From Amphiscolops sp. MND2022 (taxonomy: Eukaryota), in NCBI GenBank assembly GCA_964187785.1, contig OZ076421.1:52018001-52082000 (forward strand): a stretch of 64,000 nucleotides of DNA, given 5' to 3'. Positions 401 through 46,890 of the stretch are shown piece after piece (position 1 is the first letter of the stretch; each line of letters starts with the position of its first letter). The translations under genes and the position numbers were made by a program. The notes below the pieces were generated by a model. The model made no database searches. It had not been told where the DNA came from and worked only from the letters and a program-made list of their open reading frames with translations.

Positions 401-1372
401 TTCTAGAAAAAAGTCAGTGAGGATTAGTTCTTCCAATAGCTTGAGGAAGTCGCATGCCAACTTTCAGCCAAATCGCGGGGCTCGTTGAGAAGTTCGAGAG
501 GAGACTGCGCTAAGAGCCGTGTGTTGTTTTTTCCTAATCTCGGCGGGGGCCCCACACCGCCCTCCAAGTTTTAGCTGACCGAAATGGACCAATCACCTAG
601 ACGTGGACGGCAAATCGATGCGAGAAAGAGGGAAGTATTGAGAAGTTTTACTCACATGAAAGTGAACTGACCTGCATATGAAGAGTTTTGAAATCTGTCT
701 TTCGGTAGCTAGCGGGTGTACCATAACTTGACAGGCAGCTGAGAGACCACTGTCAGATGGGTAATATCGTACTTAGTAGCATTTCTTCCAATGTCTTATT
801 GTTAAGTACTAAACTACTCCTTAATTTTTTGAAGAGATCTTATATAAACGTTTCCAAGTGTAAAACCTTATTCCTACGCAATTGAATTTAATAGAACACT
901 GCTCAACGATTTAAAATCACGTTTGGCATTACAATGACTAACAATTCCTTTTTTACAACTTCACGCATGTTACTGTTTTCCTAACTCTAATTCCTATCCT
1001 TACTTTTGAATTCCTAAACTGCAAGTTTTGTTTTGAAAAAAAAAACGGTTGAAGTTTTGGGGAAGAATTTAAACTGAACTGAAAAGGTTTGGAAAATGTT
1101 ATTTGTAATGATACCTAATTACAATTGATTCTCCTAAATAAGCCTAACCTAAAAAAACAAAAAGGAAAAAGATTAACACATCGTATTTTCAGTTTTAAAT
1201 TGAGGAGAACAACTGAAGGCACTCATGTCTCCCAAATTGTTCACCTCAACAGCGCTGGAACTTTATTTGCTTGAGTTTGTTTTGGCCAGTGGCTGAAGGC
1301 ACTCAGGTCTCCCAAACCACTGACCACGGCAACATCCACACTGTCTTATGATTCCTCGTTGTCTGCTCCTCC

Positions 1373-11316: not shown

Positions 11317-11641
11317 AAAACCTAATGTGGAGAACAACACACGTTCACTTTCCGAGTAGAACAATGTGCTTTCCCGTAAAACCTTTACCCGGTACTTCAC
11401 AAGGCGGGAACCACGCTCATCGTCGATTCCACCAAAAGAGCAACATAGCTCGAAATTACATACAACATCGCACGGTGTCCACCCTGTGTAGTAGAACTTT
11501 GTGCCATATTCTACAGTGCCTACTTTTACATTTTTACAGAAAATTAGATGTTGTTTCAAAACCTAATGTGGAGAACAACACACGTTCACTTTCCGAGTAG
11601 AACAATGTGCTTTCCCGTAAAACCTTTACCCGGTACTTCAC
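11317..11641. repeat. 241-bp tandem duplication whose second copy is split by the LINE
   Basis: AAAACCTAATGTGGAG...GGTACTTCAC occurs at 11317-11400 and 11558-11641. The continuation AAGGCGGGAACCACG follows at 11401 and resumes at 13901. Confidence 0.9.
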
Positions 11642-13890: not shown

Positions 13891-13982
13891 GGTACTTCAC
13901 AAGGCGGGAACCACGCTCATCGTCGATTCCACCAAAATAGCAACAAATTTTAACATTTTAACCGTTTTACATTTTAAATTTT

Positions 13983-14421
13983 TTATGTCGACTGCATTTC
14001 ACCGCAAACACAAAAATGAAGATTACAGTTTTTCTCGTTAACTTTTTCCTGGAAACGTGATAGCATGTCTTTCAAATTTTTCAAATCGTTATGACGAACA
14101 CGCATTTCTCGATGTAATTCTTGTTCAAAGTCTCGGCGCGAAAAACGTGATGAAAAATTGCAAACAAAAGCAGCGACTGCCCAGGGCAAACGGTGGGGTT
14201 TTCTCGTGAACTCTGAACCGTCGCCGCAGTTATGTTCCGACAACCGTGTTAACAGCGCGCGCTCAGTTTCTCCTACGTAAAAAGTTTCGGGCGAAGTCGG
14301 GTTCAGACTAATCAAAAGATACACAAAGCCATTAGGAGTGCTTGGGATGTTTTTGTTAAAAGGTACGTAAGATAATTTCGAGATGTTGATTGGCTGAACG
14401 CTGGAATTGCACCTTGAGTTG
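13983..14421 (-). CDS. GIY-YIG nuclease domain, C-terminal part of the transposase
   Basis: GFVYLLISL...FYVGET...TRLSEHN.G.GS.FT...RLPW...DFE (SLX1-like pattern). The frame stays open upstream into the helicase end. Confidence 0.8.
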
Positions 14422-16145
14422 TTTTTAAGATGGATATGATGGCACTTAATGTCACATTTTTGTTACCAACAAAAGTAAGGTTTTTTAATTGTTTGACACG
14501 ACTGACAATTACAAAAACTTGCGACGTCATCCACAAAGCGTAGCTGCTGTCGGTTGCGGAAATGGACGTCGCCAGCTTTTCAAACGTGTCACCCATGAGT
14601 TTGTGCGTTGTCATGGCAACAAGGTTCATGAGCGGTAACTGTACCCCTCGCACTGAGTTCTTCTTGAAAGGCTGAACTAAGCCGGTGTGCTTTGAGAGAG
14701 TCACAGTCCGCCAAGTCAGGTACTCCTCGCGTTCCAACATCCCAGGAGTGATGTCAACTTCCCCACCACTGCTATCTGGGACGTAGATTGTGACCGAGTC
14801 ACCAGTGGGAACCTCGTGAACTACACCAACCTGACCTTGAGACAATTGCTCAGCTTCCAGATTCACTGTGACCCTTACCAAAGCCTTTGAGTAAACAATT
14901 AACTGTTTGAGCTCGTTTACCTTGTCGCTGAGATGGTTACTTACTTGTCGAGAGTCAGTCTCACTCCACACTGAGCTCTTCGAAAGACAGATCTCATCCT
15001 TGGCTTCAAAAATGCGGTAGGATGATCCCGACGCGCGTACTCGCTGAATGTGGCTATCGAATTCTTTCTGTTCAGTTTTCCGTTTGCCAAAAACCCGCAT
15101 TACACAAGGGTCGTCCAAGTCATCCCAGCTGTCCTTGAAGGTGCACTTAGTGTCCAGAATCGCGAGTATTTCAGCGACAGCAGGTTCATTTATGGGACGT
15201 TTCCACATGTGTCGAAGTACAGTTTGACCGTCTGCATCTGTCATTCGAACAAAGTGCGACAAAAAGAACATTGCGAAGTTTGTCAATAGAACAGGACTGA
15301 GGAAGATGTCGTTCCCTTCGATTGACGGCAGCTGCATCTGATCACCACTCGCGATCACTAAAACCCCACCGAAAGGCAAGGTTGACTGCTTCAACTCTTG
15401 AAGTTTGTGGTCCATGGCAGACCACTGTTCAGCACTGATTAGGCTCACTTCTTCCACGAACAGTACTTCCAGGGCCATTAACAGCATCTTCTTGTCATTC
15501 CGGTGGTCCAGTTTCACGAGAGCTTGCTCGGCCATTTTGATCGGTGATCCACAAGAAGAAGGAGGCAAGCAAAACAATTTGTGAATGTGCTCACCGCCAA
15601 AGTGCATCGATCTTCGGGATGCTAAACTAGTTACAAGACAAAACAACCCTTTCGTGAGCGCATAACCCAAAGCCATCGTCAACACATACGTCTTACCTGT
15701 ACCTGGTGGACCCAAAATCAACTGGTGTTTCCTATATTTATGGTCAGAAAACGGATTTTCACAAATTAGTTCTTTCAGTTGTTCTAAAATTATGGTCTGT
15801 TCTTCACGAGACTCTTCAGACTGGAAATTGTTTGGAACAAGTTCACCAGACCAGTCAGATGGTGTTTCTCTGGACACATTTTCAAAAAGGCTGGAATTAG
15901 GAAAATTGGGCCAATTTTTCTGAGTTAAACATTTTATGATGTTTAATTGGGACTGCCGAAGCATCTTTTTAGCCTTATCTTCCAATGCTTCAGTCAAGGT
16001 ATCCATCTTTGTAATGGGCAGCCCTTCATTATAAATGTCATTATCTATTAACATTCCCTTGAATGCTGACTTTGCCGCCAGTAGATTGTTATCAAAAGAA
16101 CGCGTACCGCCTGGTAGGTATCGCAATTGCTCGAGTACATATTTT
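14422..16145 (-). CDS. PIF1-family SF1B helicase domain of the transposase
   Basis: GPPGTGKT, FVEEVS, FGGVLVIASGDQMQLP, VRMTD, QLPL...TTHKLMGDT, FVIVSRV. Confidence 0.9.
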
Positions 16146-18955
16146 TTTCAAAATTTCATTGACATCATTTTCATCGTATACTTGCTTGTCTGGTACAACC
16201 CCGCCCTTCACGTATGCATCCTTCAAAGTTGGCACATCAAAAAGTTCAAATTCAGTTTCGAAAGCAGCGTTGGACAGTAAAAAGTGAATGAGAAAATTAG
16301 CAGGATTGCGAGGATACACTTTTGAAAAAACAACCTCTGCTGGTGTATTTGACAAATTTGGGTCACTGGATACAAAAAGAGACCGTCCCGGATGTGAGGA
16401 AATGTTCAAAACTTCAGAAATTATAACGAAGGCATCGAGCAGTCTACTATCGGTTAAATTTGCCGCTAAAGATTCTTGGACAGCAGCTGAAAATTCGGAA
16501 ACTGCAGAAGGTCTTAAACGAATGGCATAATTTTCACCATCCACCCAAGTTGATTCCCTAACGTCGTTTTTCAAAAATCGTACACTGACAGTCTCCCTTT
16601 TACCGGACAATTTTTCGCGTTTAAACCACCTGAAGTAGGGTCTTAGTTTGTTTACAAAAAGCAATTCAGGAGGACGTAGAGAAAAAACAGTTACTTTGTC
16701 AGTACTAAATGGCGTTTTGTTGACACTTTCTAGAACAATTTTTTGGCTCCTAGTAAAAAGTCGATGACGTGGTAACCTCAAATGATGTTCCCTGATCTCA
16801 CATGGACCTTCGTTGGCCACACCTGGTATATTTGTTCTTGAACAAGTATTATTTTTTCTTTTCAAAATGACACCTCCCCGATTTTCTAAAGCTACTGTTG
16901 GGACTGAAACAAAATCCATGGTTGTTATTACAGTTGGTAGTTGTAACATCCATGACACACATTCTGTACTTGCAATGGTGGTAGAATTTATGATACCTTG
17001 CGTTTTATCCTGCTTCGCTTCTCGAGCAAGGATCTTTCTAACACCGCCTAACTTTTTGTTTTCAATTTTTTGAACCTGCACATTTAAGACATTGTGAGCA
17101 TTTTCTGGATTGATGGCCACATCAGCATGCTCTTCTTTTCCAGCAGCGTACGATGTCAAGTACCTGGATGCGACCGACTTGCAAACCTTTAAAACGTTCA
17201 AACTGGATTTACAAATACTCCAGAGGGCAACCTTCAGCGGTGACATGTGCTCTCCTCTGGTGGCCGCATACATGTATTTACCTGCCATTAGAGTTGTTGT
17301 AACCTGCAAACACCTATCAAAACCAGGCCTCGGTTCAGCCAAATCAATTTCCTGTAATGCTACTACGGCTTCTTCCGAATGTGGCTGGTGGAACTCTTTG
17401 TACCAGGGAACGTTACTTTAATGGATAGGGCGGGAAACGACACTTTCGCTCGCCGTTCAACCTTACTTTTTTAAGACAGTGCCCTTTCTCACAATCATGA
17501 CTTTGAATGCGAATACAATCGTCGAATAACTTACCTGCATGCTTCTCACTATCAACAGTTCCGAAATTCATTTGAAACAATTTTTTAAACTCATGGAGGA
17601 CGTGTTTGTGTGCACATTGAATTTTCTCGATGATGTCCTGTGTTGAATTTTTTAACCAAAAAAGAATATGATAATGTTGCAGGTTGGCTGCTGCACTTTG
17701 AAATTCTGCCCTACCCCAAGTTTTAATAATTTCACCCAAAAGGTGTTCGTCTGAAAACCTTAAGTAGTCAATCAAAAGTTCGATAGTCCTAGTCCAGCAT
17801 CTCACACTGATGACCATGTAAGCCTGGAGTACTTCCTTCAGTTCTTCGGTGGTTGCGCTGCCGTACTGTTCGTAGATTGCGTTAACGACCTCAGCAACAC
17901 CAGGGTGTTCTTTCTGGTTACATGTAAAAGTTACAAAAAGATCCGGTGTTTCAGTGGCACAAGCAGTTCCTAATCGATTTACATGAACGTCGCTGTCGAC
18001 GCTATCCATTTTAAGAACAGACTCTGTTGATGTAAGCTGCTGAGGTCTGTACTTACCAATAGTGATAGTCTGCAGCCCACGTTTGAAAAATTGATTTGTG
18101 TGGCACTTTACAAGTGACAAATTTAAAACACAGTCAAAAGCATACATTATATAGACCAAATTCGAAGAAGTTAAAAGCGTACCATCCTTAAGTCTTAAAC
18201 GCATGTGTTCATGCAAAACATCGAATTCTAATTTGGAGTTTGCATTTTTATCGTCATACAAGAAAAAAGGCAGAGCGCCAGGGAACGAACCGTCTTCTAA
18301 GTGCTTGTAAAAAACGTTTGGGAACAGACACGCTTCAGGTTGCATCAGGGGGATAGAACGACCCGGCAGTGTGTAAACGAAATTTTGGAAAAAGCGTTGG
18401 AATTTTTTGCCTATGTGGGAGGGATATTTTAATCTTTTAAGTAGTTGACATTCACCATTTAAAAGTACATGCATGGGAACGAAATTAGAGTCATTGGACA
18501 AGTAAACGGGCTCACAGCCAGCGTCCGTGGCAAAAGCATCAATTTCTTGGAACCCGGCATCCACAATTAATTGTGGGCAATCAAACTCATCCATGTTGGC
18601 TTCCGGTTCTTGTGGTCCCTGTCGGTCGTCCAGCACGAAGCTCGGACCTGGCAAATTGTTTTCAGTCTGATCTTGTTCTTCAATCAAAAAAGCTTCCTCG
18701 TCACTGCTGTCTTGGATGGTATCGTCGGACGGCGTGTTGTCGACCAAAACCTTATCGTTAGTGTCACAGAACTCGCGGAAATGAGTTTTACAAACGGACG
18801 CTAAACAATTCTTTTCCGGACAACGCCAAGCAGACTTCCTAGTACAGATTTGCTGATCACCGGTGTTTTTAGGCATACTACATTTTCGTTGGCTTTTAAA
18901 ATAATCAGTAGATAGAGGCAGGTTATGTTCATTACAGAAATAAATTCCTTGACCC
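16146..18955 (-). CDS. HUH/Y2 Rep endonuclease region of the transposase (frameshift at about 17418)
   Basis: Motif 1 PDLFVTFTCN, motif 2 AEFQ...LQHYHILFW, QSHDC...CRFP, motif 3 SRYLTSYAAGKEE (YxxxY). Confidence 0.9.
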
Positions 18956-21046
18956 CCGTGTATTTTAAGTATCGCAGCTTAGTTTCTTCAGTCAAGTCTG
19001 TTTTAGAAACGTAAATTAAAAAGTCCCATGTCCTATTATACTGGTATTCCAAAGTTGGATCCTTCACGGCTCGGCTTCCGTCATTCTTTATGGTCCAAAA
19101 ATTGAAAAAAGGATCTCCGTGCCTCAAACTCACCTTACCTTCAGCTGAGATGATAACAATTGAATGTTTTTACCATTAATGGATGTTAAATTAAAAGGAA
19201 TCTGACTATCCCTAGATTGAACATCGGAGGCAACGACTAAAATTAGATCGTTTCGGGCACAGTCAATCCTAACAGTGTCAACATTACCTCTGTGACAGTG
19301 CACGACGTGACAACCTTCTAACAATTCACAAAAAGATACCAAAGGTTCTGCTTGAGGAGGAAACAGTTCAGCGAAGGCACTCTGCAAGCAATTAAATAGT
19401 GATGAAATTGTGTGGTTATATTGAAAACTTTTCTTTCCTTCAAGTCGTTTCAAAATTTTACAAATTTGAGAAATGTGATCATTTTCGTCGCAAAGCTGAC
19501 ACATTTTATACCATAAAGAATCATTGTTTAGAGAAGCATGCGCAAAGACAAAAATGTTATTTTCTTGTGAAACACCTTTGGAGAACACTGATGGTTCAGA
19601 ACCGTATCCATCTAATCTGTGACCGTATACCAAAGGTTTTTTATAGTCATCACGATTTGTAACATCTTCTGGGCAAGTTTCTACATAGTCTTTCATGCGC
19701 ATCAGTGTGTTCATGTTAAAAACAATAGCGTTTTCACAATGCTCTTCGATTAATGACAAAGAAACTGGCAATTCAAACCCCAAGAAAGCTTCAGCTAAAG
19801 TATCACTAATTTCTTGATTTTGACAACAAACCCTAATGATTTCTTTAACATCGCTCCTACAATTTATCAAAAGTTTTTCCATGTTTTGTTGTAAGTAATT
19901 CAAAGGGCATTCGAAATTCCTGAAATTATGTAAAACAGTAGAACTAACTCCACTTATGCGTCCACTGTCAACCCGACACATAGTGAAGGTAGCACTTTTT
20001 GCGCCAATTTTGAGAGGTCTTACAGTTCTGACACTTGAAACCATTAGAGCTAACCTGTCGACGAACTTGGGGCTGATGTTACCTGCCACTGGATTAGTCG
20101 GTACATGCACATAATTAAGTAAAACACCGTTCTTATGGTCCGAACATACAACTAATTGCAAACCTTTTTCTTTGCAAATTACACATGGTGAAACGGGAAA
20201 TTTTTCTAAGAGAGTTAACGTTTTAGTGAAATCATCTCGAGCTCCTTTTAGAAATTTTTTACTGTTTGCATTAAAGCTAGTGAATAATGGAAAAAGGTAA
20301 TTCAAAAAATGGGCAAATGAAATTCCGTTCGATTTTTCGACGAATTCAAAGCATCCTGCAGGGCACCTAATGTTAGGAAAGCAGTGTGTAGTTAAAGCTT
20401 TTACAAGTGTTTTAGCAGTTCTAGTGTTAATCAAATTCCAAAAGTCTTCCTTTTCTGGGGTAATATCCCTGAATACAGAATCTGTAACGGAAGTCGTAAT
20501 TAATGGGTGAACAGTATTCATGTTTCGTTTAAAAGATTCCTTAATTTCATGTGGAAGTAGTTTATAGAGTTTCTCAGCGTTAGAGTTGAACCTATGTGTG
20601 TCAAAAAGTAGAGTATACATAACGCTGGGCCAAGCGTTTGGCCAGTCTTTGTGACGAGTAGTAGTATTGTTGTTGTAAGCAAGACAATGTTGACAGAAAG
20701 TGATTGTATCAGTAGTCATCTCAGTCACACGTTTACCAAACATAGTCGTATGAAGTGAGACACGTTGTAAAGTTTGAAAATCAAGTCTGTAATTGTTTGT
20801 GCTCGTCGGGCAACATTTATCACACATCTGCTCTTCTGACATCTCCACATCATTGGGGGCATCTGGGGGATTGGGGACATTGATCGCTACGACATCTTGT
20901 TCGTTAACATCTTGTTCTAATTCAATTCTCTGACTCTCCTGACATCTTGCACAGACTCCATCCGCTGTTATGAAAGTATTGTGAATCTCACATCTTCGTC
21001 TCCGGTTAGAAATGCTGGTTTTCCGTCTCCCTCTGCCACGAGGCAT
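18956..21046 (-). CDS. Cys/His-rich N-terminal extension of the transposase (frameshift at about 19169)
   Basis: ATG at 21046 with a basic leader, several CxxC/CxxH clusters, and no stops once single-base shifts at 19167-19171 and 18953-18957 are allowed. Confidence 0.65.
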
Positions 21047-22773
21047 TGTGGACTTTTAGCCTCTTTGATAGCCAAGCAATACAAGTTAATGTAGGCAAAG
21101 CAGATCAAAGCAATTCAAATCAAATCTGGAAAAACGCTGATCCTGATAGACATCATCAGAAAAAGTCACCATTTTTGACACATAACAAAGATTGCGTATA
21201 ACTGGAAACACGGTTGCACTTCATTTTCACCTTTGCCAGCATATTTACCGAGGATTACCTGTTTTACCACTACTTTGTGCAGAACACCTAATCACCGACC
21301 ACGCTTTCCGTCGATCGATGATCACCATTTCTACTCAACCCACGAACTTACCAGACGTAACCTGTAACCAAATACTAACTGTTTGCAGAAAAAGAGAACT
21401 CCGACACCTGGAAAAAGAAAAAAAATTAGTTGGAAATAATATGAATTCAAAACCTACCTAAACTTAAAATGTCATAAGTCAACGTCAGGTTCAGCTACAG
21501 AGTCTTATAATAGCTCGTTTTTCTCGTTCACTCGAGCACTTTCCACTAGCATCCACTTGCAATACTAATTGTGTGGAAGTTTTTTACCTTTGGGAGGCCT
21601 GAAAATGAAAAAAAAAGTTTTTGAAATTTTTTCGGAAAAATTCTAAGTCATTTTACTTTTACCCGGGGAATCCTGGAACGCTGAAACTGCGGCAAAAGGG
21701 CCAAATGATTTTTTGGGAGGTAAACCGGCCAGGGGAGGCCTTTAGGAGAGGTCCCGGAAAAAAATCTGGGCAAAAAACGGCAAAGATAGAGTAGGTTCTC
21801 GAAAATTTGCGAAAAAATGCGTCCGAATTCCGGCTATTACTCAGTCAATTTTATTTCGATCTGGACGAAAATTTGTCTACGGACTCCTTACGAAGTGCCC
21901 AGCAAAATGGACGTCCACATGCGAATCGCTCCGGGCACCTGGGGGCGAGATATGGGCTCTTGAAAAAAAATTTCGAAAAAATGCCATTTTTCGACTAAAA
22001 AACTAAGATTTTGACCCACATTCTGCGTTTTCACAGCAAAATGCCAGAAGGGATTAGTTCTTAGAGTTGTTATAGGAAGCCGTATGCAAAATTTCAGCCA
22101 AATCGCGGAGCTGGAGATCGGGGTTAGACTCCCGTTTGTGCCTTACGTTGAGTGTCGTAGGTATCCGACATTTTGGCTCGGGCAAGGGGCCCTACCCTGC
22201 CCTCGAAGTGTTAAGCAAATCGATGGATTATGGCACCTAGACGTGTACGGCTGATAAGAGAGTCAAGAAGGCAGGAAATGTTCAAAAAAGAAAGTTACTC
22301 ACGTGATTGGAGAAGTAGTCGTCAGTCGAGTGTTGGTTGAGAGGTTAATTAGTGGTTAAGGATGTTCAAGAATGTGGAAGTGTTGTCGTTACATTTTCGA
22401 AATTTTAAGAAATAAGGAATTTAGGAAAAAGAAAAGTGGAACCACGCTCATCGTCGATTCCAGCAAATGTGTATCTCCCTCAATGCTACAAATTTCCTAA
22501 CTGATGTAAACCTAAATACCGTATATTAAACTTTAATCAAAATTCATTTTTAAAGAAATCGCTTGGTAAAGTTTAAAAAATTTCAGTTCGCCCAGAAAAA
22601 ATATAATTTCAAATTAATTCTGGTATCAGTTTCACGTTCGGGTAGAAAGTTAACGATTTTCAAAGAAACACAATCGATTTGACAAATTAAGTTCAATTGT
22701 GGAGAGTGGCTGACGGCTCTAAGGGCGACAAGTCACTCAACCGCAACAGCGCTCAGAGAGTTTGTGTTTTCAT

Positions 22774-23843
22774 TCATCCACACTGTGAAGCAGTTTCACC
22801 CTTGTAACACAGGGCAGCTTGTGCATCTGTTATTTGCTCTTAGGCAGCAGGGAGCAAACGTGGAATCGCTTGCTCTCCACGGTTGTGCCGTCATCATCCA
22901 CTGCAGGCTTAAACCAGCCTATTATTCGAAACCACCCCCTGAATTGATAGCCTGTACCATTTTTCGAACACTTTCATCCAACTTGAACCGATCAAGGAGG
23001 TCCGAATCAGGTTTCATTGACTTGACGTTGGCGCTCACGAACACCATTGTTGTGGAATTTGAATAGAGTTCTATTAAGTCTTCGTTTTTAGTTGCCTCCG
23101 TGATTTCTGGACACCTGAATTCAAAAAGCAGAGACCATGTTTTTTTAGGTCAGGCCTCAGTGCACGGACATTGGTCATGATAATTTTGCGTCGCACACGT
23201 TCTCACTGCAGACGTCTTCGGCTATGACGGCTGAGTCCATAGCGAGTTTTTTCGTAACAAAATTAAAGAAACGAAATTCGGTAGAGTTGCCCTCAACGTC
23301 ATAAGGTGGCAGCGTTTTGGCATTGTTTACGGATGTGGTCGGAATCAGAGGTTCCTTTGTACTGATCAAGGCCGTGCCACCACGACTCAGGTTACCCTCC
23401 ATCGTTGGTTTCAAAATCTCCACTTGGCAGCCAGGAGACAAGGCCTCGTGGTACCGGAATAATCTTCTGGTTTCCTCTGAGTTTGCAGAGAATAGTGCCA
23501 GAACCGTTGAGGATCCGGGCACTCCAAAAACCACGAAGCGGTTGTAATTTTCCACTTCAACCTTCCGACTACTGCCAAAATTTTTGCTGGATTTCGTATT
23601 CATTAGTTTTCTCGTAGGCTGGGTTGCATATAGGTAGGTGGCTTTTATTCTATGAAGTCTCGGATTGTTGCTGGTTGAGGACTGCAATTGGTCAACGGAA
23701 ATAGTTTCAAACTCTGGCAACAAGGCCTGCGCTTGGGTCACCCTCAAGTTAGATTTAAAGAAGCCGGGCATTACGGAATCTGGAAAAATGGCAAACCGGT
23801 CTCTTCGAGGTCTTAAAATAACAACCGTGCCGATCTCTGTCAA
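22774..23843 (-). pseudogene. OB/Zn-ribbon-like accessory protein, full length but disrupted
   Basis: 222-aa ORF continues after a frameshift and stop as CPCTEA*PKKTWSL...DRFKL...GWFKPA...KRFHVC, colinear with 35914-36906. Confidence 0.75.
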
Positions 23844-27739: not shown

Positions 27740-28900
27740 CACCATTCGCTGCTTTACCTGCAAACTTACCATACGTAACCTATTACCAAATATTACATTT
27801 TTTGCAGAAAAAGTAAACTCCAACACCTTGGAAAAAGGAAAAATTTATAGATAGTGAAGTTGTCAACGTCAGATTCAGCTACAGAGTAGTTATATAGCTC
27901 ATTTTTCTCGTCTATCCGAGTACTTTCCACATGCATTCACTTTCAATCTTAGTTGTGTGGAAGTTTCTAACCTTTGGGAGCCCTGAAGTTGAAAAAATGA
28001 TTTTTTTCAAAAACATTTCAGGACTTTTATCTTTTACCCGGCGAATGCTGGAACACTGAAACTGCTACAAAAGGGCCAAATAGTTTTTCCGGGAGGTAAA
28101 CCGGCCAGGGTGGGCCTTTAGTAGGGGATATGGAAAAAATGTGGGCAAAAAACGGCAGAGATAGACTGAGATTTCAAAATTTTTTCGAGAAATTGCGTCC
28201 AAATTTCGGCTAATACTCAGTCCATTTTACTCCGATCTGCACGAAAATTTGTCTACGGGAGCTCTCGAAGTCCCCAACAATATAAACGTTCACATGCGAA
28301 TCGCTCCGAGCACCTGGAAGCGAGATATGGGCTCTTGAAAAAAAATTCGAAAAAACGCCATTTTCGACCAAAAACCTAAGATTTTGACCATTATTCTGCA
28401 TTTTCACGGCAAAATGCCAGTGACGATTAATTCTTAGAATTGTTTTAGAAAGCCGTATGCAAATATTCAGGCAAATCGCGGGCCTAGTTTAGAAAATCGG
28501 GGTCTCGCCGTTAATTGGCCTTACGTTGAGTGTCGTAAGTATCCGACGTTTTGGCTCGGGCAAGAGGCCCTACCCTGTCGGGTGTTAGTCGAAAGGATAA
28601 TAAGTGGTTAATGATGTTCAAGAATGAGAAAGAGTCGTCGTTACATTAGTTTTCTCGATTTCAAAATTCGCCCACTTGGAACCTAGACGTGTACGGTTGA
28701 ACGGAGAGTCAAGAAGGCGGAAAAGTGCTAAAAAAATGAAAATAGTTACTTACGTGATTGACGAAGGAACCTCTTTTGTCGGGTGTTGGTTGAGAGGTTA
28801 ATTAATGGTTAATGATGTTCAAGAATGTGGAAGTGTTGTCGTTACATCGTGCTGAAATTCGAAATAAGCAAACTTGGAATCACGCTAATCGTCGATTCCA
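27740..28900 (-). repeat. Second copy of the non-coding spacer upstream of the transposase
   Basis: Colinear with 21330-22470 (AACTTACCA.ACGTAACC, GGGAGGTAAACCGGCCAGG, GAGATATGGGCTCTTG, GCCTTACGTTGAGTGTCG). Confidence 0.8.
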
Positions 28901-29212
28901 GCATTTATATATCTCCACCAATACTACAACGTTCGTAACTGATATGAACCTAAACACCGCTAGTGAATTTCAATTATTACTAATTTTTGAAAATTGCCCG
29001 ACGCCAAGTCCAAAAAATTCCTTACGTCAGAAAACTTGCAATTGTTCTCATTTGCTTAATTTTTCTTTGATTTGATTCTTTTTAACTTTAAGAAACGAAA
29101 TACAAACAAAATGCTGAAGTTGCAGAGAGTGACTGACGGCTCTAAGGGCGACAAGCTATTCAACTGCAACAGCCCGGATGCGAGTTTAATAGTTTTTAGC
29201 AATCTTTCTCTT

Positions 29213-29830
29213 TTAATTTGCACTGGTGACTGGTGCAGCAACAGTCGTGCTTGCTGAAACTCCTTCAGATGCATCACCGCCATTAAATAGTTTCGCTAGC
29301 TGGTCATTCGTTAACCGTTTCGCGGGCTCAAGGGAACAAACATGTAGCTTTTGATGCTCCAATGCCACACCGTCATCATCAAAGGCTGGCTTGAACCAGC
29401 CAATGATTTTGAAGCCTTGGTTTTTATTGATGTCAGCCACCAGCGCTTCCACCGAAGTGTCTAGTTCGAAGCGATCAATATCATCGCTGTCAGCCTTCAT
29501 AGCTCGACAAGTTTGAGTGAGGAAACTGTCGGATACTCTGTTTGAATACAATTTGATTTTCGTGGCAGGAGTAAGCCACTAGCAACGCCCAAGTTTTCAC
29601 TTGGGAGGCCTCCAAGCATGGACAGGGAGAATGGTATGTCTGTCCATCGCACACGCTCCCCGGACAGATTTGCTCACAGATGATAGCCGACTCTATTGAC
29701 AGACTTTTCGTTTCAAAGGAAAAATAGTGGTACCGATGCTGGTACCAAATTGCTGATAGTGGTACCAAATTGCTCGAACGTTGCTGCATCGACTGATTGG
29801 AATTCTGGAAGCAAAGAAGAACTACTCAAT
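29213..29830 (-). pseudogene. OB/Zn-like protein C-terminal fragment
   Basis: ICEQICPGSVCDGQTYHSPCPCLE...DRFEL...GFKIIGWFKPA. Confidence 0.75.
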
Positions 29831-33800: not shown

Positions 33801-35400
33801 CTAATCTTCCGATTCTTCTTCTTCGGATGGTTTTTTTATAAATATTACTAATGTAATATTATTTAACCTCATCTTCCGATTCTTCTTTTCTTCTTCGTAT
33901 GGTCGTTCTGTTATAAATAATGATATTATAAATATTATTTAACCTCATCTTCCGAATCTTATAATTTTCGTCTGGTGCTGCATTAGTTCATGTGCGTGCT
34001 AAAACAGAACAAACACCCTTTCTGCCAAATACGTTTTAACGCTCAACTCCACTCAACCTGAATCTCACTATAGTAGGAAAAACGATGGTTAGGTCTTAGA
34101 ATGTTTCATTTTAGTTGACAAGTCGCGTTTTGGGATTTTTCATCTGATCTTTTGTTTAGGAATAGTGCATCAACATGGAAGATTATGTAAAAATTTATTT
34201 TGATTTGAGATTTGAAATCCAGTGTCTTTAGCTTTTTAGTACCCTAGTGTATGATGCATTTCGATCTGTAGCTTAGCTGAACTTGTCTGTTTCTTCAGAA
34301 CAACGTCAGACTCTTTGAATTTTATTTAGATTGGAAACCCATTGAAAGTTGCTAAAAATTGTGATTCACTAGTTGTTCAACTGTAGTGAATAAGGTCACT
34401 TGATGTGTGAATAAAAAGTTGAGAGGTATATAATATCCTAAATGACGTGCTGAAAATGGAACATGAGGGGTACGATTGCGTTTTTCAGAATGGACGAAAA
34501 CTTTCAGCAGACAAATTTTAACATTACATGATTTCGATCAAAATTCAGTTAGAAATAAGACTGGAACGTCTCAAAGCGTCATACCCTTTGCTGATACCAT
34601 TTTGTGATAATAAAAGTCGGAGGATTTCCCTTACATAGTTCTAAACATGCATTTGACCGATTCCCGGGAAATCCGCGGATATGATTTGCATGTATTTGAG
34701 CCTTCTGGATTTGCGAAACTTTTAGTGAATGACATTGGTAGGGTAATGCCTCAAAAAAGCGCAATGTCTTTGAATCATGCTCGTGAGAGGGTTTCATGCG
34801 AATATTCTGGAAATTCTTACTGTGTCACTCCTGTAGCGCTATCTTCCTTGAAGACCACTGTTCGACACTGATCAAGCTCAATTCTTCCACGAACAGCACT
34901 TTCAGGGCCAGGAGGAGCGTCTTTTTTCATTCCTGTGATCGAGTTTAGTCAACGCTTGTTCAGCCATCTCTATCGAGCCGCAAGATGAGGGAGCGAGCAG
35001 AACAACTTTTGATTGTGCTAACCGACGAAATGCATTGACCTAGAAGCTAAACTTGTTATCAGACAAAACACCTTTCAAAATTGCATAACTCTAAAGCCAT
35101 TGTGAATAGTAAGTCTCACCTGAACCCGGGACCTAAAATCAATTGATTTCTTCTAAACGTGTGGTCAGAAAACAAATTCTCACAAATTAGTTCTTTCATT
35201 ATTTCTAGAAAAATGTCAGTGAGGATTAGTTCTTTGAATAGTTTGAGGAAGTCTTATGCCAACTTTCAGCCAAAGCGCGGGGCTCGTTCAGAAGAGCGAG
35301 AGGAGACTGCGCGAAAGGCCTTATGTTTTTTTTCTTATCTCGAGCAGGGCCCTACATCGCCCTCCAAGTTTTAGCGGACAGAAATGGAGCAATCACCTAG
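30840..35400 (-). repeat. Three tandem mosaic units of about 1.53 kb (helicase fragment + spacer + SGNH-upstream region)
   Basis: The landmark GACCACTGTTCGACACTGATCAAGC lies at 31801, about 33320 and about 34853. Each unit has the FVEELSLIS helicase segment and about 76-bp subrepeats. Confidence 0.9.
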
Positions 35401-35913
35401 ACGTGCACGGTTGAACGGAGAGAGTCAAGAAGGCAGGAAAGTATTTCAAATGAAGTAAAAAAACAGTTACTTACGTGATTGGAGAGGGATCGTCTTCAGT
35501 CAGGTGTTGGTTGATAGGTTAATTAGTGGTTAATGATGTTCAAGAATGCGGTAGTGTTGTCGTGACATAAATGTTCGCACATATTCCAATTGAGTTTTAG
35601 AATTTACTTTAGTTTTTTTACATTCTCCTAAAATCCTACTTTGATTTCATGTCTACCTATTAACTGCTCACTCAGTGGCTTATTTGAAAAGAACAGTACC
35701 AGGTAGAAAAAATGCAATTAGTTCATATCTACCTTTCCAAATTTCCTTTTACCTGTGGATTTCGTTGTCAATAAAAACAGAAATTACCGATAATATGAGA
35801 TCAAGAACAAGAGTATTTTGAGTTTAAATTGTGGTGAATAGCCGAGGTCTCACAAGGACCACACACTATTCACCACAACAGCGCTGAATGTAGCTAGTAT
35901 TCACTGCATCACA

Positions 35914-36906
35914 TCAAGTTGATGTTCCGTTGTAACGTAGTGCTAGCTGTGTGTCGGAGAGGGCAGTTGCTGGCGCGATGTTGCAAATATGGAACTTCTT
36001 GTTCTCAACAGCAACCCCCTCCTCATCGATTGCTGGCTTAAACCACCCTTGGATTGTGAAACCTGCTGACCCGTTCACGCTTTCAATCAATTTTTCGACA
36101 GCGGCGTCTAACTCGAACCTATCGAGTTTTTCATTGTCACCCTTAAGGCAACGGGCTGTCGGGGTGACAAAGAAATTGGTGAGGGCGTTTGACGTCACTC
36201 TGAAAACATCCCCGGCATTGTTTATTTCGGTGGTTAATTCGGGACAAGTGAAGGCAAGGGAGATAACCCAAGTTTTGTCCTGGTTCGTTTCTAGGCACGG
36301 GCATGGATCGTGATAAGTCTGCCCGTCACAAAGCGTAGACGGACAGACATTCTCAGCCACCAAAGCGGAGTCTAGCTTGAGGCCTTTGGTAGTGAAGAGG
36401 AAACCGCAGTAATTGCTGTTCTTCACGTCGAAAGGCGGCGGAACGGGAATTTTAGTCGGCCTGGCAATCGGTACTAGGGGCTCATTTGTTTTGAGCAGCA
36501 TCGTTTGCCCACGTGACAAATGCCCAATCAACTCGGGCTTCAGTTAATTGAGCTGTGTGCCCGGACCAAAGTACGCGGCATATCTTAACATTTTTCGTGA
36601 TTCCTCTGAGTTCTCAGGAAATACGGCATAGCAGCATGAAGAACCTGCTGCGTTCAGAAGGAAGAATCGATGATACTTGTCAACCTCCAATTTCCTGGAG
36701 GCCTACCCATAGTTCTTTGTTGTTTTGGAATAACCCATCTTCTTGGCGGGCTGAGATGCATACAAAAAGGTGACTGACAGTTTGAAGAGTCTCGGAAGGT
36801 TGTCCTGACCTTCAAACTTTGATGGATCAATTGTGGTAAACTTCGTGGCTTTCAATTGCGCACTGGCCAAATTCAATTTAGCTTCAAGGAAGCTCGGCAT
36901 ATTCAC
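35914..36906 (-). pseudogene. OB/Zn-ribbon-like accessory protein (330 codons, two in-frame stops)
   Basis: ORFs 36703..36906 and 35914..36531 are in one frame. This is the best reconstructable copy of the family. Confidence 0.8.
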
Positions 36907-37959
36907 AAGAATTTTGAAAACTTAAGTCAAGTATTCAAAATGTTATTTTTCACCAAGCAAATGGAAGCGTTCGTCTAAACCGGGTCACAATCAGTTTTGG
37001 TCTCAAAATACTCTTGAATTGTCCGAAACGAGTCAGTAAACCAGTGAAAAGCAAATGTATATGTACAGTTTTACACCATATACAAGTTACTTTTGTTTAG
37101 AACGGATTAAATTGACGCCTGTTTTAATGGAAACCGGGAAGTCATTCAAAAGTCCATACCACAAATCCTGGTAACAGTACGCTAATGACTATAATAAAAA
37201 AACATAACACTATTGACAAGTTCGATATTTACAGGTATATAAACAAATAATAGCTTAAAATGGACCTGAAACATGATAACTTTTCGCGGACTCCCCTTTG
37301 TTAATGTAGTAAGTTACATTATTGAGATAGTGAAGTTGATGCATTTTATTAGGTTCAAGTAGGAGAAAAATTGGATAAAATAGAAAAAATCGGTGTAGAA
37401 TTTGAAAAGATGAAAAAGTAAAAATAACTTTCATAACGAAACAAAAAGATTTTCGAAAAAACTGTAAAAAATTCTAAAAATGTTGATGAAAAAGCTTGAA
37501 AAGTAAAAACAATCCACACTTTCCAATATTGAAAGTGTTTTTTGGTTTCATTTTGTTTTTTTTTGTTATTTGTTTTGTTTTGGGTTTTGTTTTATTTTTT
37601 TGTTTTTTTTGGGGGGGGGATTTACAGAATTATACATATTTTTTTTGGTTTTGTATACTGATAAACAGCCTTTTTTGTTTTTTTGGAATTTCTGGTTTTT
37701 TCTTTCGACCCAGAAACCTTGGCAAACTGGGCGCAAATTGTGAGACAGCTGCTTCGTGTCCAGGTTGAAGCGAGGACGTAGACAAGCACAACTTTTTCCG
37801 CGAAGACAGCTGGCAATCCTGCGAGCAGGCCAGGTTTCCTCTCCATCTCTTCCACGTCGCCAGAAACCTAATTAAAAGAAAAAGGCGGAAAAGAAGAAAA
37901 AAGAGAGGAAAAAAGTCAGTTTAAGCACCTAAAGGGCTTAAACTGACAAAGCGCAAGTT

Positions 37960-39110
37960 TTAAGAATCTAGATCTTGTTTATGAAAAAAGCGAATTATTC
38001 TGTCCAGGGACAAGTTTAAAGACAATTGTGTCTGATGGGCGCTGTCGTTAACTTTGAAGGCTGAATTGCTGAGTTTGAAATCGAAATAATGGAAAAAGTT
38101 ATCTCTCAGCAAGCGGTTAAATTCATTATCCAGAGATATTGCAGGGGATGTCGTGGCTTCTTCTGTTTGATTGGATGATGGCTCAATTTTTTTCTCGTCA
38201 CTTTTTCTCCGCCTACATAAAACAACAACAAATCGACAGTCTTTAGCATTTGCTTTTCTCTCTAATAATTTTAGGCAATGAAGGACTTTTGACGGAGACA
38301 GAGGTTTATGTACACTGGGATTTAGCCAGGGGGCAACTGTTAGGCTATTCATAACAATGTCCAGGTAAAATACGATAGTCGATGGATTACAATTTAGAGC
38401 CTGTTGGAATAAAGTTTTAGCCTCTTTTTAGTCGGCGCTTTTCTTAAGAAAAGAGCCCGACTATTACAGTCACTCGTTTTTTTTCTTTTTTTTATTTAAG
38501 ACAGACTCGAAGCGACGAACGTTAAAATTAACGTTCAACTACTAAATACAGTACTACTAAAATACTGGCAGCGCATTTGAGATAGTGCAAAGGGTCCCCC
38601 CTTTCAGTAAGTCCATTTTTATCGTAAGATACAAAACAGGACGAGACTATAGGGTCCCCCCTTTGTGTTTTTTTCGGCACTGTGCGACTTTTCGAAATTT
38701 TTTTTTGTCCCCAAAGGGTCCCCCCTTCGAGTTTTTTGTTATTTTGCAACGGAATGTATGTTAATAAATCCAGAAGGATCCCCCTTGTACATTTTTCGGC
38801 ACTATGCGACTTTTTTTGAAAGAAAAAAATTTTTCAAAAATTTCAATTTTTTCCAAAATTTTTTTGCGCTTTTTGAGTCTTAGATATGGCGCCGACTTTA
38901 GACGTTCCCGTCTTGTTCAAAATTGCTGTGATAAAACAGCTCCTGGTTTTGCAAAAATTTTAAAATCGATGTAGTCCGGAATTCCTGTAATGTGGCTGTG
39001 AGGGGCTGAACAACTTTGAGTGTCGCAGTTGCAGACAACCAAGGGCAGCTTCTGAAAAGGAACGAGGTTGCTGGCACCGACGACGACAATTTTTGGAGCT
39101 TCCGTTTGAT
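37960..39110 (-). pseudogene. SGNH-like gene interrupted by a HINE-like insertion
   Basis: IVVVGASNL...KPG...HSNFE|KEAKTLF...YLDIVMNSLT...FKVNDSAHQ. Reading rejoins across 38428-38917. Confidence 0.75.
38428..38917 (+). mobile_element. DINE-1/HINE-like non-autonomous Helentron
   Basis: 5' subTIR plus inverted copy (AGTCGGCGC-TTTTCTTAAGAAAA-GAGCCCGACT), internal AGGGTCCCCC repeats of about 62 bp, 3' subTIR GCGCCGACT, stem-loop GACG-TTCC-CGTC. Inserted in a T-run without a clear TSD. Confidence 0.75.
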
Positions 39111-39599
39111 CTGAAGACAAATACAACGTTCTTTGAATAGCTTGAGGAAGTCTTATGCCAACTTTCAGCCAAAGCGCGGGCTCGTTCAGAAAAGCAAGAG
39201 GAGACTGCGCGAAAGGCCTTATGTTTTTTTCTTATCTCGAGCGGGGCCCTACATCGCTATCCAAGTTTTAGCGGACAGAAATGGAGCAATCACCTAGACG
39301 TGGACGGCTGATGAGAGTAAAGAATGCAGGAAAGTGTTCAAAAGAGAAAAATTCTGCGGGACTCAAACAATCAATTATTGATGTTGGGTTTTTTTCTCCA
39401 AAAACTCAGTTTCCCGGTTGCTGTAGAAAATTGTAATAAATAAAATGTAAATTGTTCAAATAGAATTGAAGTTTAATTGCGGAGAGTGGATGACTGCTCT
39501 AAGGGCGACAAGCCACTCAAGCGCAACAGCGCTCAGAAAAAATGTTTTCCACTACTAGTAACCGGCACCGCTGAAGCTTTCGTTTTCCACACCCTTAAG

Positions 39600-41107
39600 C
39601 TGTTTCACCCTCATAACACAACAGCTTCTTCATCAGTCAATGGTTTTTCCGGTTGGAGGGAGCAAACGTGGAACCGCTTGCTCTCCAAGGTTGTGCCATC
39701 ATCATCATTTGCAGGCTTGAACCAGCCTATGATACGGAACCCTTCAGCAGCATTTAATTGGTTGACCATTTTTTCGGACACTGTCATCCAAATTGAATCG
39801 GTCAATCAGCTCCGAATCTGGTTTCATAGCCTTAACAATGGTGCCGACAAAGACCATTGTGGCCGAATTTGAATAAAATTCAACGAGATCATCATTTTTG
39901 GTGGCCTGGGTGATCTCTGTACATTTGAACTCAAATAATACAACCCATGTTTTTTGTGGTGCGGACTCGGTACAAGGGCACTACTCATGAAAAGTTTGAG
40001 CATCACGCACCTTAACGCTGCATACATCTTCCGCAATGACGGCCGAGTCCATAGCCAGCGTTTTTGTTACGGAGCTAAAGTATCTGAATTCACCCGAGGT
40101 GGCTTCAACATCATAGGGGGGCAACGTTTTTGAAGTTTTTGAGACGTTCTTTTGTGCTTATCAAAGCAGTGCCTCCACGACGCAGGCTTCCTTCAATGTT
40201 TGCTTTCATTATCTCCACTTGGTAGCCAGGAGATAACGCCTCGTTGTAACAGTACAACCTTCTAGTTTTTTCATTGTTCCCAGAGAAAAGTGCCAGTACC
40301 ATTGAGGATCCTGGCACGCTGAAAACCACAAACCTGTGATAGCTTTCGACTTCAATCTTTCGACTGCTGCCTCAATTTTTGCTGGATTCAGTGAACATGA
40401 GTTTTTTGTGGGTTGCGTTGCGTAGAGATAAGTAGCTCGGATTTTGTGCAGTCGCGGCTCACGGCTCATGGAAGGTGTGCCCGACATGAAGTGTTCCGTA
40501 ACTCACGTTTTCAGTGATAACAGCTGAATCTACCTTGAGGTCCTTTGTAACAAACGAGAAATACTTATATTCGAGCGAAATTCCCTCAACATCATATGGG
40601 AGAAGGCATGAGGGGTTATTGGGGGCACTAATTGGGTCTAGTGGCTCCCTTGTTGTTATTAGGGGATTCGATCCCCCAGCTAATTGTCCCTCGAGGTTGG
40701 GTTTCGGAACTACTACTTCTGTACCAGGTCTTATTTTTCTTGTAGCGAAGCAGCCTCCTTGTTTCTTCTCTTGTCTGTGTAAACATGGTCAGCACGGTAG
40801 GGGTACCAGGTACCCTAGGACAAAGTATCGATGGTATCTCTCCATCTCTAACTTCTGAGCCTGGTTGAACCCTTTGCTGTACTTTGAAAAAACCAATTTC
40901 GTCTGTGGCTGGGGAATGTACACTAAACAGGCACTTTTATGAACCATTTTGCTTTTGAACAGCATGAAAACAGGGTTACTGGTAAACTGTATTTGATCGA
41001 CAAATGGAGGTTAACCTAAATTTCACTGTGTACCCATTACCGAACTGTTGATACACAAACTGTGTTGGAATCTTTTCCACAGGACATCTCGTAAGTATTA
41101 TTTTCAT
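39600..41107 (-). pseudogene. Two joined OB/Zn-like gene copies of different subfamilies (41107-40500 and 40487-39600)
   Basis: ERYHRYFV...RPG...KPNLEGQL...TREPL...PYDVEG...FSFVTK is followed by LHKIRATYLYATQP...GWFKPA. Confidence 0.7.
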
Positions 41108-42550: not shown

Positions 42551-44619
42551 TTTGATCTACAATACGAGGACTATCAGTTAAGGCTCCCAATGATATGCAG
42601 CGACCATGCCGAACATTGAAATTTGGACAACATAATCACTACAGCCTATTCTAAACCTACTACCTTTCAAAAAAGTGAAGTACAAAAAACATGTCATATT
42701 TTTTATAATCTTTTCCCAAATCTTGTTTTCGTGTTGTGGAACGTCTTCATCTTCTCTTCTTCCTCTGGACGCTCTACTATAAATATTACTATAATAGATA
42801 TTAATTATTCTCATCTTCGAAATTTTTTTCGTCTTCATCTGGACGTTCTAGTATAAACACTACTTTGATTGTTGCCAAAAACGTCTCAATGCTCAACCCC
42901 ACTCATTCTCACTATGAAAGGAAAAGACAGCTGGCAATCCTGCGAGCAGGCCAGGTACAGCATAATCACTACAGCCTATTCTAAACCTACAACTTTTCAA
43001 AAAGTGAAGTACAAAAAACATGTCAGATTTATTATAATCTTTTCACAAATCTTGTTTTCGTGTTGTGGAACGTCTTCATCTTCTTTTCTTCTTCCTCTAG
43101 ACGCTCTACTATAATTATTACTATAATAGATATTAATTATTCTCATCTTCGGAATCTTCTTTTCTTCGTTCTTCTTCTGGGCGTTCTTTTATAATTATTA
43201 CTATAATAAATAATAATTCTCATCTTCCGAATCTTCTTTCTTCTTCTGGACGCTGTATTATAAATACTACTATAATAGATGTTAATTGTTCTCATCTTTT
43301 TTTCTTCTTCCTCTGGACGCTCTAATATAAACACTACTTTGATTGTTGCCAAAAACGTCTCAATGCTCAACCCCACTCATTCTCACTATGAAAGGAAAAA
43401 GATTGGTTAGGTTTTAGAAGAAAGTCAAATAATGTCTTTGTCTTGAAGTTTTATTTTAAAAAAGTCGAAGTTGAAAGTCAGTTTTGGGAAATTTTGTTTT
43501 GGTCTAATAAGTCACATTTTGGAATCACGGTCTGTTTTTATCATTGAGAGTGGGTCAGCGTGGAAGGCTCAGAAGGGCTACACGCGCTGCTACACTGGTT
43601 ATACATTTTTTTCATTTCGAATTTAAACTTTATGTATAAGTCAAACATTAGAGTGAATAGGCAAGCTTAATTTGCTCAAAGCGCAATTTGTGCTTTCAAT
43701 ACCTCGGATTCCACGACCAAACCTTTAACCGTGCACAATTGACAAATTACGTCATAAGTCCCGGATTCCACAAACAAGCATTCCACGGACAAGCAGCGGA
43801 ATTTTCGTGTCCCGGATTCCACGACAAGCAGCAAAATAGCTTGCCTATGCACTGTAATGAAAGGACTACACAAGCTTCTACACTGTAGGACTTGCTGCTA
43901 GATTGTCATCATCTGTTCTGCTTCAGCTGCACCATCGTCTGCTGTCCGCTACATCATTCTTCATCGTCTTCTTCTTTAACTGCATCGCTGTTATTCTTAC
44001 TAGGTTAACCTCATTTTTTGCGGTTGGCTCAAAAGGGCAAAACACAAGGATACACTTTAAAAACAGTATGAAGGTTCTCTCAAGTTCTAGTTTTAAGAGG
44101 CATTTGGCTCAAAAGGGCATGATACCTCGAGGTTACATGATGTTTCAAAGAAACCTTATTTATTTTTTGAATTCAAATTAAGCAATTCTGGAACCACGCG
44201 TGTCGTCGATTCCAGCAACTTAGGTTAATCTTAAGAGACCTGGAACCACGCTCATTGTCGATCCCAGCAAACAAGAACACTAAAGGTCGGACTGATTAAT
44301 TGAAACCTAATGAACCTTGGTGCAATAATTTGTATTGGCGTGGAAGGTTCTAGGGCTACACAAGCGTATACACTGATAATCTGTTGCTGCACCCTTTCGT
44401 TGTCCTGGCTCTATTGTCTTCATCGGCTGTTTGTTCTCCTCGTACACGTTAAAAACTTCTAACTTTGGAAACCCAACAACATACATCCTACAGCATTTTA
44501 ACGGCACTAAACGAGCTCAAAACCCTACAGTAACAACCTCCACCTTTTTCATCCAATGGAGAGGGCACTAGGGCTACAAACATAGAATGCAAAGAGTTCT
44601 TGAGGCTGCGCAGTGACTA

Positions 44620-45580: not shown

Positions 45581-46154
45581 TTAGACGTGGACGGCTGATA
45601 AGAGATTCCAGAAGGCAGGAAAGTTAAAAAATTAAAATACTTACGTGATTGGAGGAGGATTGATTGCTCTTTATCAATCGATGTTGGTTGAAATGATAAT
45701 TAGTGGGTAATGATGTTCACGAATGCGGAAGAGTTGTCGTTACATTAATTGTCTCGAATTCGAAATTCGCAAACCTGGACCCAAGCTCATCGTCGGATCC
45801 ACCAAATGAGGCTGATGTAATCTAAGTATGCGGGTCTTCAAACAGCGGTAACTACCTGAATAATTGAAGAAAAATAGTTGTCGATTGAAAGAAATTTAAT
45901 TGCTTCTTCTGAGGTGGGTATTCCTTGTAATTTTCCATGAAAGTTATTTTCGCTCATCATTCCAACAAAATGTAATGAAAAAATCAAACACAAAAGACAA
46001 CATGTTTTGTTGACAATTTAAGTTGTAATTAATGCAAGCATACCAAAGCACTCAAGATCTCTCGATTAGCTTAACCTAGCAGCGCGAAATAACTCTGCTG
46101 CAGGTACTACTCACGGAAAAAAGTTATTAGCTGTTAATATTGTTCTAGAAGTTG

Positions 46155-46890
46155 TTAGTTTTGACACCAATTAGTAGAAGCAATAGAAGCAAAAGGGTTG
46201 GTTTCAGACACTCCCTCGTTATTGAGAGCCGCTTGAATAGAGAATTTCTTTTCGGGTGCTAGCATAGATACATTATATCTTTTTTTTTCAGGGGCAGTTA
46301 CCTCGTCGTCGGCAGCCGGTTTAAACCAACCTTCCACTCTAAAACCTTGTCTGTCGAGTCGGTCAGTTTTGTCACTGTCCGCTCTAAGTGTTCTCACGTC
46401 GTTTGTGAGGAATACGGGCGCAATTTTAACAAAATATAAACAGATGTTCTCATCCAAACCGTGAAATTCGGGACATCGAAATTCGATTGAAAGTCCCTAG
46501 GCCTTTTTGGGAGAAGCCTCAATCCAGCCACATGGCTCATGGAAGGTGTGCCCGTCATAAAGTGTTCCGTAACTCACGTTCTGAATCTACCTTGAGGTCT
46601 TTTGTAACAAACGAGAAATACTTATATTCGAGCGAAATTCCCTCAACATCATATGGGAGAATGCATGAGGGGTTATTGGGGGCACTAATTGGGTCTAGGG
46701 ACTCCCTTGTTGTTATTAAGGTATTGGATCCCCAGCTAATTGTCCCTCGAGGTTGGGTTTCGGAACTACTACTTCTGTACCAGGTCTTATTTCTTTCTGG
46801 TAGCGAAGCAGCCTCCTTGTTTCTTCGCTTGTCTGTGTAAACATGGCCAGCACGGTAGGTGTACCAGGTACCCTAGGACAATATATCGAT
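46155..46890 (-). pseudogene. OB/Zn-like gene fragments
   Basis: GFRVEGWFKPA at about 46330. 46530-46890 is nearly identical to 40460-40860. Confidence 0.7.

Follow-up and report, generated by a model that had tools for sequence, protein, structure and literature searches.

Conserved-core hairpins with freely varying stems behind the stop codons of a Helitron-like element in Amphiscolops sp. MND2022

Results

Organization of the Helitron-like element

The DNA analysed herein, referred to as the window, is a stretch of 64,000 nucleotides from Amphiscolops sp. MND2022 (assembly GCA_964187785.1, contig OZ076421.1, positions 52,018,001 to 52,082,000), part of a eukaryotic assembly of 1.07 Gb, and carries a broken gene for the transposase RepHel (14312..21046, minus strand), divided into four frames in this copy. 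On the same strand are located remnants of ORF2 (38191..39096; 222 aa when intact), a predicted OB-fold (RPA-like) Helitron gene of 328 codons with two premature stops in this copy (35914..36900), and a conserved Helitron 3' terminal block (35394..35579), which ends in CACGTCTAG at 35397-35405. The intact element, defined by four dispersed copies of about 98% identity, is about 13.8 kb in length and is organized in the order RepHel, non-coding tail, ORF2, OB gene, hairpins, about 600 nt and CACGTCTAG. The intact RepHel is 2370-2377 aa long (uninterrupted frame of 7.1 kb), and the Pfam search of the 2370-aa protein identified Helitron_like_N, PIF1 and a C-terminal GIY-YIG domain, the same domains being found in the window. 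By this combination of HUH Rep and PIF1 helicase, the element is Helitron-like. For ORF2 we found no match in Pfam or PDB, and the label 'SGNH-like' found no support in either search.

The 3' end is of the CTRR type: the four copies of about 98% identity stop matching 2-3 nt past CACGTCTAG, and eight of eight further elements agree. As to the features that define HLE1 and HLE2 in the available part of PMC11417382, the canonical HLE1 5' TC with A/T insertion was not found, the left boundary being CTAG/GTG (slash at the junction) in all three aligned copies, and GTG directly followed the 3' CTAG in four of four copies and in seven of eight further elements. The HLE2 marker DUF6570 was not detected at E 0.1, and the junctions, again CTAG/GTG, do not represent the T-T target. 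Because of the GTG start at these junctions, the element is filed neither as canonical HLE1 nor as HLE2. Both Helitron boundaries are thus CTAG/GTG, the flanks are the ends of related units, and all are in one orientation; judging from these boundaries and flanks, the Helitrons appear to insert at the junctions of head-to-tail arrays, unlike the rule of TC...CTRR between A and T. Ends in CACGTCTAG were also noticed in L031-L050 and L134-L141, and the others in the window are given below with the hairpins. The last ~160 nt of the element are ~80-87% conserved between subfamilies (35394-35579, minus strand; L051, L079, L082-L084), and carry a splice-donor-like CAC/GTAAGT ~70 nt before the end; as a promoter or a first exon, this terminal block could function across the junction of circles or tandem copies.

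Predicted OB-fold protein encoded upstream of the hairpin

An intact copy of the OB gene (L002) is 95% identical to 35914..36900, and at least 153 matches of the frame were found in the genome after scoring 150 of 403 candidates. The protein had no Pfam match, and the search of a protein atlas was also empty. The structural model reached a pLDDT of 86.6 when built from 25 sequences and 36.5 when built from 8 sequences. In Foldseek the best matches were RPA and CST, with E values of 2e-4 to 1e-3 and TM scores of only 0.2-0.3, and structural alignment with VIA, in a comparison that covered mainly residues 8-189, gave Z 8.6, rmsd 3.7 and 114 aligned residues for MCM10, and Z 7.4, rmsd 3.0 and 105 aligned residues for RPA70. 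By its predicted fold, the product of the upstream gene is an RPA/CST-like OB-fold protein, which bears out the name 'OB-like' given to this gene in the preliminary description of the window. An RPA-like passenger is also carried by HLE1 and HLE2 in the available text of PMC11417382; in contrast to those genes, the OB gene of this element is without Pfam match and is recognized only by its fold. The OB profile detected 933 cluster representatives at E 0.001, and among the elements carrying hairpins of class A (see below) the OB proteins drift to 43-49% identity.

Three side observations concern this gene. In eight of eight elements viewed (L051-L090 set), a splice-acceptor-like sequence precedes the OB start codon by 8-25 nt, and a split near residue 307, probably due to an intron, was seen in several distant OB genes. 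An array at G000:C1:4384529-4405784 (L005-L014) consists of tandem units of ~1.75 kb, each containing the main hairpin and a portion of the OB gene, and the unit boundaries do not coincide with the hairpin.

Hairpins in the window

The main hairpin, assigned to class A (35829..35878, minus strand), consists of an outer stem of ~15 pairs, a small internal loop, an inner stem and a short loop, and scored 79 bits with the covariance model, which was built from that very copy. Its center is a conserved core of 20 nt (35844..35863, minus strand) of the form UGU-N-G-H-C ... GAG-H-C-N-UC. Since the OB-like ORFs are on the minus strand, the preliminary description had been reading the antisense strand; the flank given there as CAGCGCT, indeed located next to the hairpin in four of five copies, is therefore AGCGCTG on the coding strand and 5' of the hairpin (35879..35885, minus strand), forming the conserved 5' flank of OB-tail copies. 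The 3' flank, ATTYAAAC-like and just left of 35829, is also conserved.

All five hairpins of that description were found in place with the stems proposed, and they start 22-124 nt beyond the end of the OB-like ORF. Besides the main copy, these are the class A hairpins at 1200..1249 (behind OB remnant 1373-1885; element end 597-605), 22697..22746 (behind the broken OB gene 22833-23843; element end 22237-22245), 29119..29170 (behind OB remnant 29213-29741; element end 28683-28691) and 39477..39526 (behind OB remnants 39548-41001; element end 39294-39302), all on the minus strand and each with CACGTCTAG as the element end. The hairpin had been said to follow every OB-like gene, which is correct for five of the six in the window, but behind OB remnant 46206-46871 there is only a decayed class A-like copy (46023..46088, minus strand; weak, 10.3 bits, E 1.3). 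A second class A hairpin (1277..1332, minus strand), with the same core as 1200..1249 and an unrelated stem, had escaped the earlier inspection, and a class A hairpin of the RepHel-tail type is at 43545..43600 (minus strand). The element end motif is located ~430-600 nt beyond four of the hairpins and 180 nt beyond the fifth, in a deleted copy. The hairpin was also considered as the terminus of the element, and this was ruled out because homology continues ~600 nt beyond it up to CTAG, indicating that the hairpin is internal.

The folding z-score of 35825-35888 was -6.2 for the minus strand and -6.1 for the plus strand, and none of 200 shuffles was as good. For the copies at 22692, 29115 and 39472, all in broken elements, the coding-strand z-scores (-0.01, +0.55 and -1.65) were not significant, and these copies fold better on the plus strand.

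Sister classes B, C and D, each with its own fixed core, are present in the same tails. The window carries a class B hairpin in the RepHel leader (21281..21332, minus strand), further class B cores at 11411, 13911, 22442 and 44246, and a class C core at 11476-11500. Behind the ORF2 stop there is a short hairpin with an A-like inner stem (37915..37947, minus strand), and such an A-like short hairpin was found 20-70 nt past the ORF2 stop in five of five elements examined.

Other features of the window were noted by the way. Inside the class B array behind the RepHel stop lies an intact reverse-transcriptase frame of 727 aa with C2H2 fingers (11717-13900, minus strand), and the segments 11388-11445 and 13888-13945 are 97% alike. 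The region 41600-64000 is composed of tandem 1.3-1.55-kb units of ORF2 plus a GAAGA-rich minisatellite of 76-80 bp from the Helitron tail. A frame at 3653-4663 (minus strand) resembles by eye the end of an OTU protease, with no Pfam match, and in the distant relative L092 a Pfam OTU domain is located at the start of the RepHel frame (L092:1-350).

Nearly fixed core within freely varying stems

Read on the coding strand, the outer stem of the hairpin leads into UGU facing UC, followed by the inner stem, which is closed by a short variable loop. The inner stem follows the order N-N', G-C, C.C (or U-A, A-U), C-G, a bulged A or U, and C-G; in the predicted and covarying structure, the internal loop of class A is 3x2 nt and the inner stem is short. 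After alignment of 15 OB-tail copies, 91.6% of cells pair, against 32-54% when the partners are slid, and 11 of the 15 pairs show compensatory changes on both sides, as did none of 500 shuffles, a statistic that is inflated by kinship among the aligned copies. The strong covariation noticed at the outset thus holds in this larger alignment.

A total of 57 unique hairpins falls into 12 unrelated stem families, all built around one core of ~20 nt. Pairing at 7 positions was 6.29 for own arms and 3.52 for crossed arms. The core pattern matched the genome 98 times and the reversed control once, and core positions 4 and 18, both left free in the pattern, pair in 95 of the 98 matches by hand count. 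In 10 of 13 elements the RepHel stop is followed by 1-9 occurrences of the same core, and in one family this RepHel-tail array is a 77-bp tandem repeat. For class B we found 277 genome matches against 3 for the controls. The mixture of classes varies by element, L079 and L081 having A only, L072 C only, and L057 B plus C, and these differing mixtures suggest redundancy between the classes.

No match to Rfam was found in the window at the gathering threshold, and the six matches below threshold in six intact loci included none on the class A hairpin. Antisense readings as H/ACA, tRNA D-arm, hammerhead or SECIS were rejected, because the look-alike words, compared by eye with the consensus, were not kept across core variants and Rfam reported none. 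The histone stem-loop was rejected likewise: one variant comes near the consensus, one letter short and buried in the stem, and has no Rfam match.

Distribution of the core among elements and beyond

Behind the OB stop, the core is present in 8 of 15 close-clade loci (L072 not counted); the other seven comprise two internally deleted copies, two having flanks and a short stem but no core, and three with class B instead. In L082 the OB-tail core is absent though the frames are intact. The class A model found none in 21 distant-clade loci (3 near-duplicates left out). Other strong hairpins, some with repeated cores of their own, were seen behind stops in the distant clades L052, L063, L064, L067, L069 and L071. 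The metagenome contig L091, with an OB protein 59% identical, carries two copies with new stems (67 and 61 bits), and the distant relative L092 has no hairpin of classes A-D on the coding strand. The preliminary description had proposed a selected RNA or ssDNA signal; this is supported by the covariation, the better pairing of own than of crossed arms, the 98 core matches against 1, and this metagenome relative. For viral contigs, there was no significant model match among the 80 pattern matches listed (best E 0.26), and the one weak protein match, L093, was not confirmed on follow-up.

An exact class A core within its own 9-bp stem was found at L124 (L124:4684-4737; G000:C2:64013698; minus strand). 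This locus is single-copy, and no Helitron protein was matched within 10 kb of it. The nearest host match is a SIKE-family gene ~12 kb upstream on the same strand, and the Pfam scan of 14 plus 143 of 198 frames gave no identity for the surrounding gene. The surroundings show GAAGAA-rich flanks, splice-like sites upstream and AATAAA ~360 nt downstream. A core in a single-copy, non-Helitron locus is more in keeping with a host factor than with a transposition signal. As to other loci, the match was confined to ORF2 in L127 and to the RepHel end in L125, and the rest of those checked were Helitron remnants.

Strand, position and transcript ends

Hairpins of class A are located only downstream of stops, at +31 to +887 for RepHel and -26 to +129 for OB; two rearranged elements have another four copies, at OB +502 to +741. 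The 2.5 kb leading up to the RepHel ATG were free of class A in seven of seven elements with intact frames (L081 was dropped for its broken frame). The last RepHel-tail copy is followed 36-43 nt on by AATAAA or ATTAAA in all 10 elements having such a copy (13 examined), these 10 representing three stem families and hence not ten independent cases. Behind OB, only three of nine copies have a hexamer at that distance and none in the main hairpin's own family; in L079 of this family neither AATAAA nor ATTAAA was found within 800 nt of the OB stop. The RepHel-tail hexamers would allow a weaker link of the hairpins to 3' ends.

All cores of classes A-D are oriented like the genes, the few antisense matches of the loosest pattern being coding sequence or stemless. 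On the coding strand G.U exceeds A.C in 9 stem families, with the reverse in one and a tie in two (p 0.02); the G.U:A.C ratio is 41:15 over classes A-D, and 17:8 for class A alone at the level of pairs (p 0.11). Deamination of ssDNA would also yield an excess of G.T. The better fold was on the coding strand for 34 of 34 hairpins of class B, 20 of 21 of class C and five of five of class D, compared with 219 of 420 control windows. For class A, the energy was -18.0 kcal/mol on the coding and -17.7 kcal/mol on the antisense strand, the coding strand being better in 19 of 37, and as DNA the antisense strand folds better (z-scores of -3.3 coding and -3.8 antisense); the common C.C mismatch of the core would become a more stable G.G on the opposite strand. 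With splice sites read by eye, an intron is predicted in the RepHel leader that takes in copies of class B, and one OB gene has a predicted intron with a class C core. As a side observation, the spacers between hairpins in the RepHel tails of L051, L053, L057, L072, L078-L082 and L089 are rich in TAGGTT on the coding strand: over 6.6 kb this strand has 29 occurrences and the antisense strand 1, and over the following 10 kb each strand has 6.

Discussion

What is directly established is the anatomy of the element, the location of hairpins behind stops, the stem covariation, the conservation of the core, its copy number and its single orientation. For their interpretation we favor, at about even chance, an element that docks a protein onto the 3' UTRs of mRNAs from the Helitron and would work much like a retroviral constitutive transport element (CTE). 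The coding strand would then be the folding strand, the stem would need only to pair so as to present the core, and the several copies would provide redundancy or avidity. The bound factor would most likely be a host protein that promotes export or stability of transposon mRNAs, the second candidate being the element's own OB protein. The MPMV CTE is, in the part of PMC4377836 at hand, a stem-loop in the 3' UTR of a mobile element with repeated internal loops that are recognized, and is comparable as a functional analogue only: class A, compared with it through the Rfam scans only, has the internal loop of 3x2 nt and the short inner stem in separate small hairpins and so lacks the CTE structure. 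Against docking on mRNA, the intron copies of classes B and C, as predicted from sequence, do not fit a role in mature mRNA, the core, present in 8 of 15 close-clade loci, is dispensable behind some OB genes, and the strand of class A is not settled by folding energy.

The same hairpins might instead be a ssDNA signal on the displaced coding strand, where RepHel, the OB protein or host primase would use them as sites of loading, pausing or second-strand priming; this is the main alternative, which we hold to be less likely. In Helraiser only the plus strand is transposed and the coding strand is the displaced strand, as far as given in the available text of PMC5876387; as the coding strand is at once that of the mRNA and the Helraiser-type displaced strand, strand alone cannot separate RNA from DNA. 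The terminal hairpin of Helraiser (RTS) is likewise an imperfect coding-strand hairpin of a Helitron. Its stem is exchangeable and its inner letters matter: in the accessible part of PMC4778049, stem swap left ~90% activity and a changed loop was not tolerated, and the conservation pattern of our hairpins, with varying stems and a retained inner sequence, would fit the same logic. That hairpin is, however, one 19-bp palindrome 11 nt before CTAG in the same source, whereas the hairpins described here are irregular, ~50 nt long, 1-9 per tail, behind stops and 430 nt to ~5 kb inside the element, a position at which terminators would cut it short. The RPA/CST-like OB protein predicted for the element, the copies of classes B and C in predicted introns and the strong DNA z-scores on both strands speak for a ssDNA signal. 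Against it are the absence of class A from the leader and the series in the RepHel tail that ends at a poly(A) hexamer, by which position leans to RNA, and the own-stem copy at L124 is hard to explain.

Imperfect, strand-specific hairpins whose irregularities are fixed, located close to an HUH enzyme or past stops, are also known from bacterial REP/BIME with the HUH nuclease RAYT, the subterminal hairpins of IS608 and integron attC. The stems of REP are conserved in sequence, and the hairpins of attC and IS608 mark sites of recombination or cleavage; unlike the latter, the Helitron hairpins do not coincide with element ends.

That the hairpins have no selected function, template switching between arms in ssDNA keeping the palindromes paired and tandem duplication spreading them, is improbable. 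Correction between arms can mimic covariation, some of the arrays are plain tandem repeats of 77 bp or 52 bp, and the intact element L082 is without the core behind OB. Correction between arms leaves unexplained, however, that the core is kept where stems and flanks are unalignable and the OB proteins are at 43-49% identity, that it is retained in L091, and that it has a single orientation.

Still less probable is hairpin-directed cleavage and polyadenylation as in Mimivirus, which the preliminary description had offered as an example and which is not supported, the context being a Helitron and the copies coming in arrays of up to nine behind one stop instead of singly at each gene end. Palindromes of varied stem just behind genes are indeed common to both systems, each of the three ORFs has a hairpin within ~20-125 nt, and the family of the main hairpin has no hexamer within 800 nt of the OB stop in L079. 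But the Mimivirus signal, as described in the available part of PMC4402537, shows no sequence conservation, terminates viral transcripts and is cleaved by an enzyme of the virus, whereas here the core is conserved (98 matches against 1), the copies are arrayed, cellular hexamers follow the last RepHel copy, no gene for poly(A) polymerase or an RNase III-like enzyme is found among the ORFs of the element, and the host is a nuclear transposon and not a virus. Least probable of all are arrays that, as decoy or precursor of small RNAs, sequester or divert a host silencing factor. The many copies per tail and the TAGGTT-rich coding-strand spacers would suit this reading; the best Rfam hint, MIR399, reaches only 30 bits against a threshold of 57 and falls on a different hairpin.

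Returning to docking on mRNA, a bolder form of it, which we regard as doubtful, is that the Helitron borrowed a host RNA code, its interchangeable docking hairpins recruiting a host RNA-binding factor, with one class shared with a single-copy host transcript and the core being a hitherto undescribed recognition motif.

The signals of Helitrons described in the accessible parts of PMC4778049 and PMC11417382 are terminal DNA hairpins, the latter source describing, in that part, terminal stem-loops only, and in the openly licensed literature of PMC and bioRxiv we found neither a title nor an abstract that describes internal Helitron hairpins with a conserved core. As the natural stem swaps already show which letters matter, the motif is directly testable on a substrate of 50 nt. 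Should it act at the DNA level, it would bear on the conversion of the displaced strand into a double-stranded circle, a step left open in the available part of PMC5876387. Internal hairpins in multiple copies, with fixed core and swappable stem, would add to Helitrons a second layer of control, at the level of either RNA or ssDNA.
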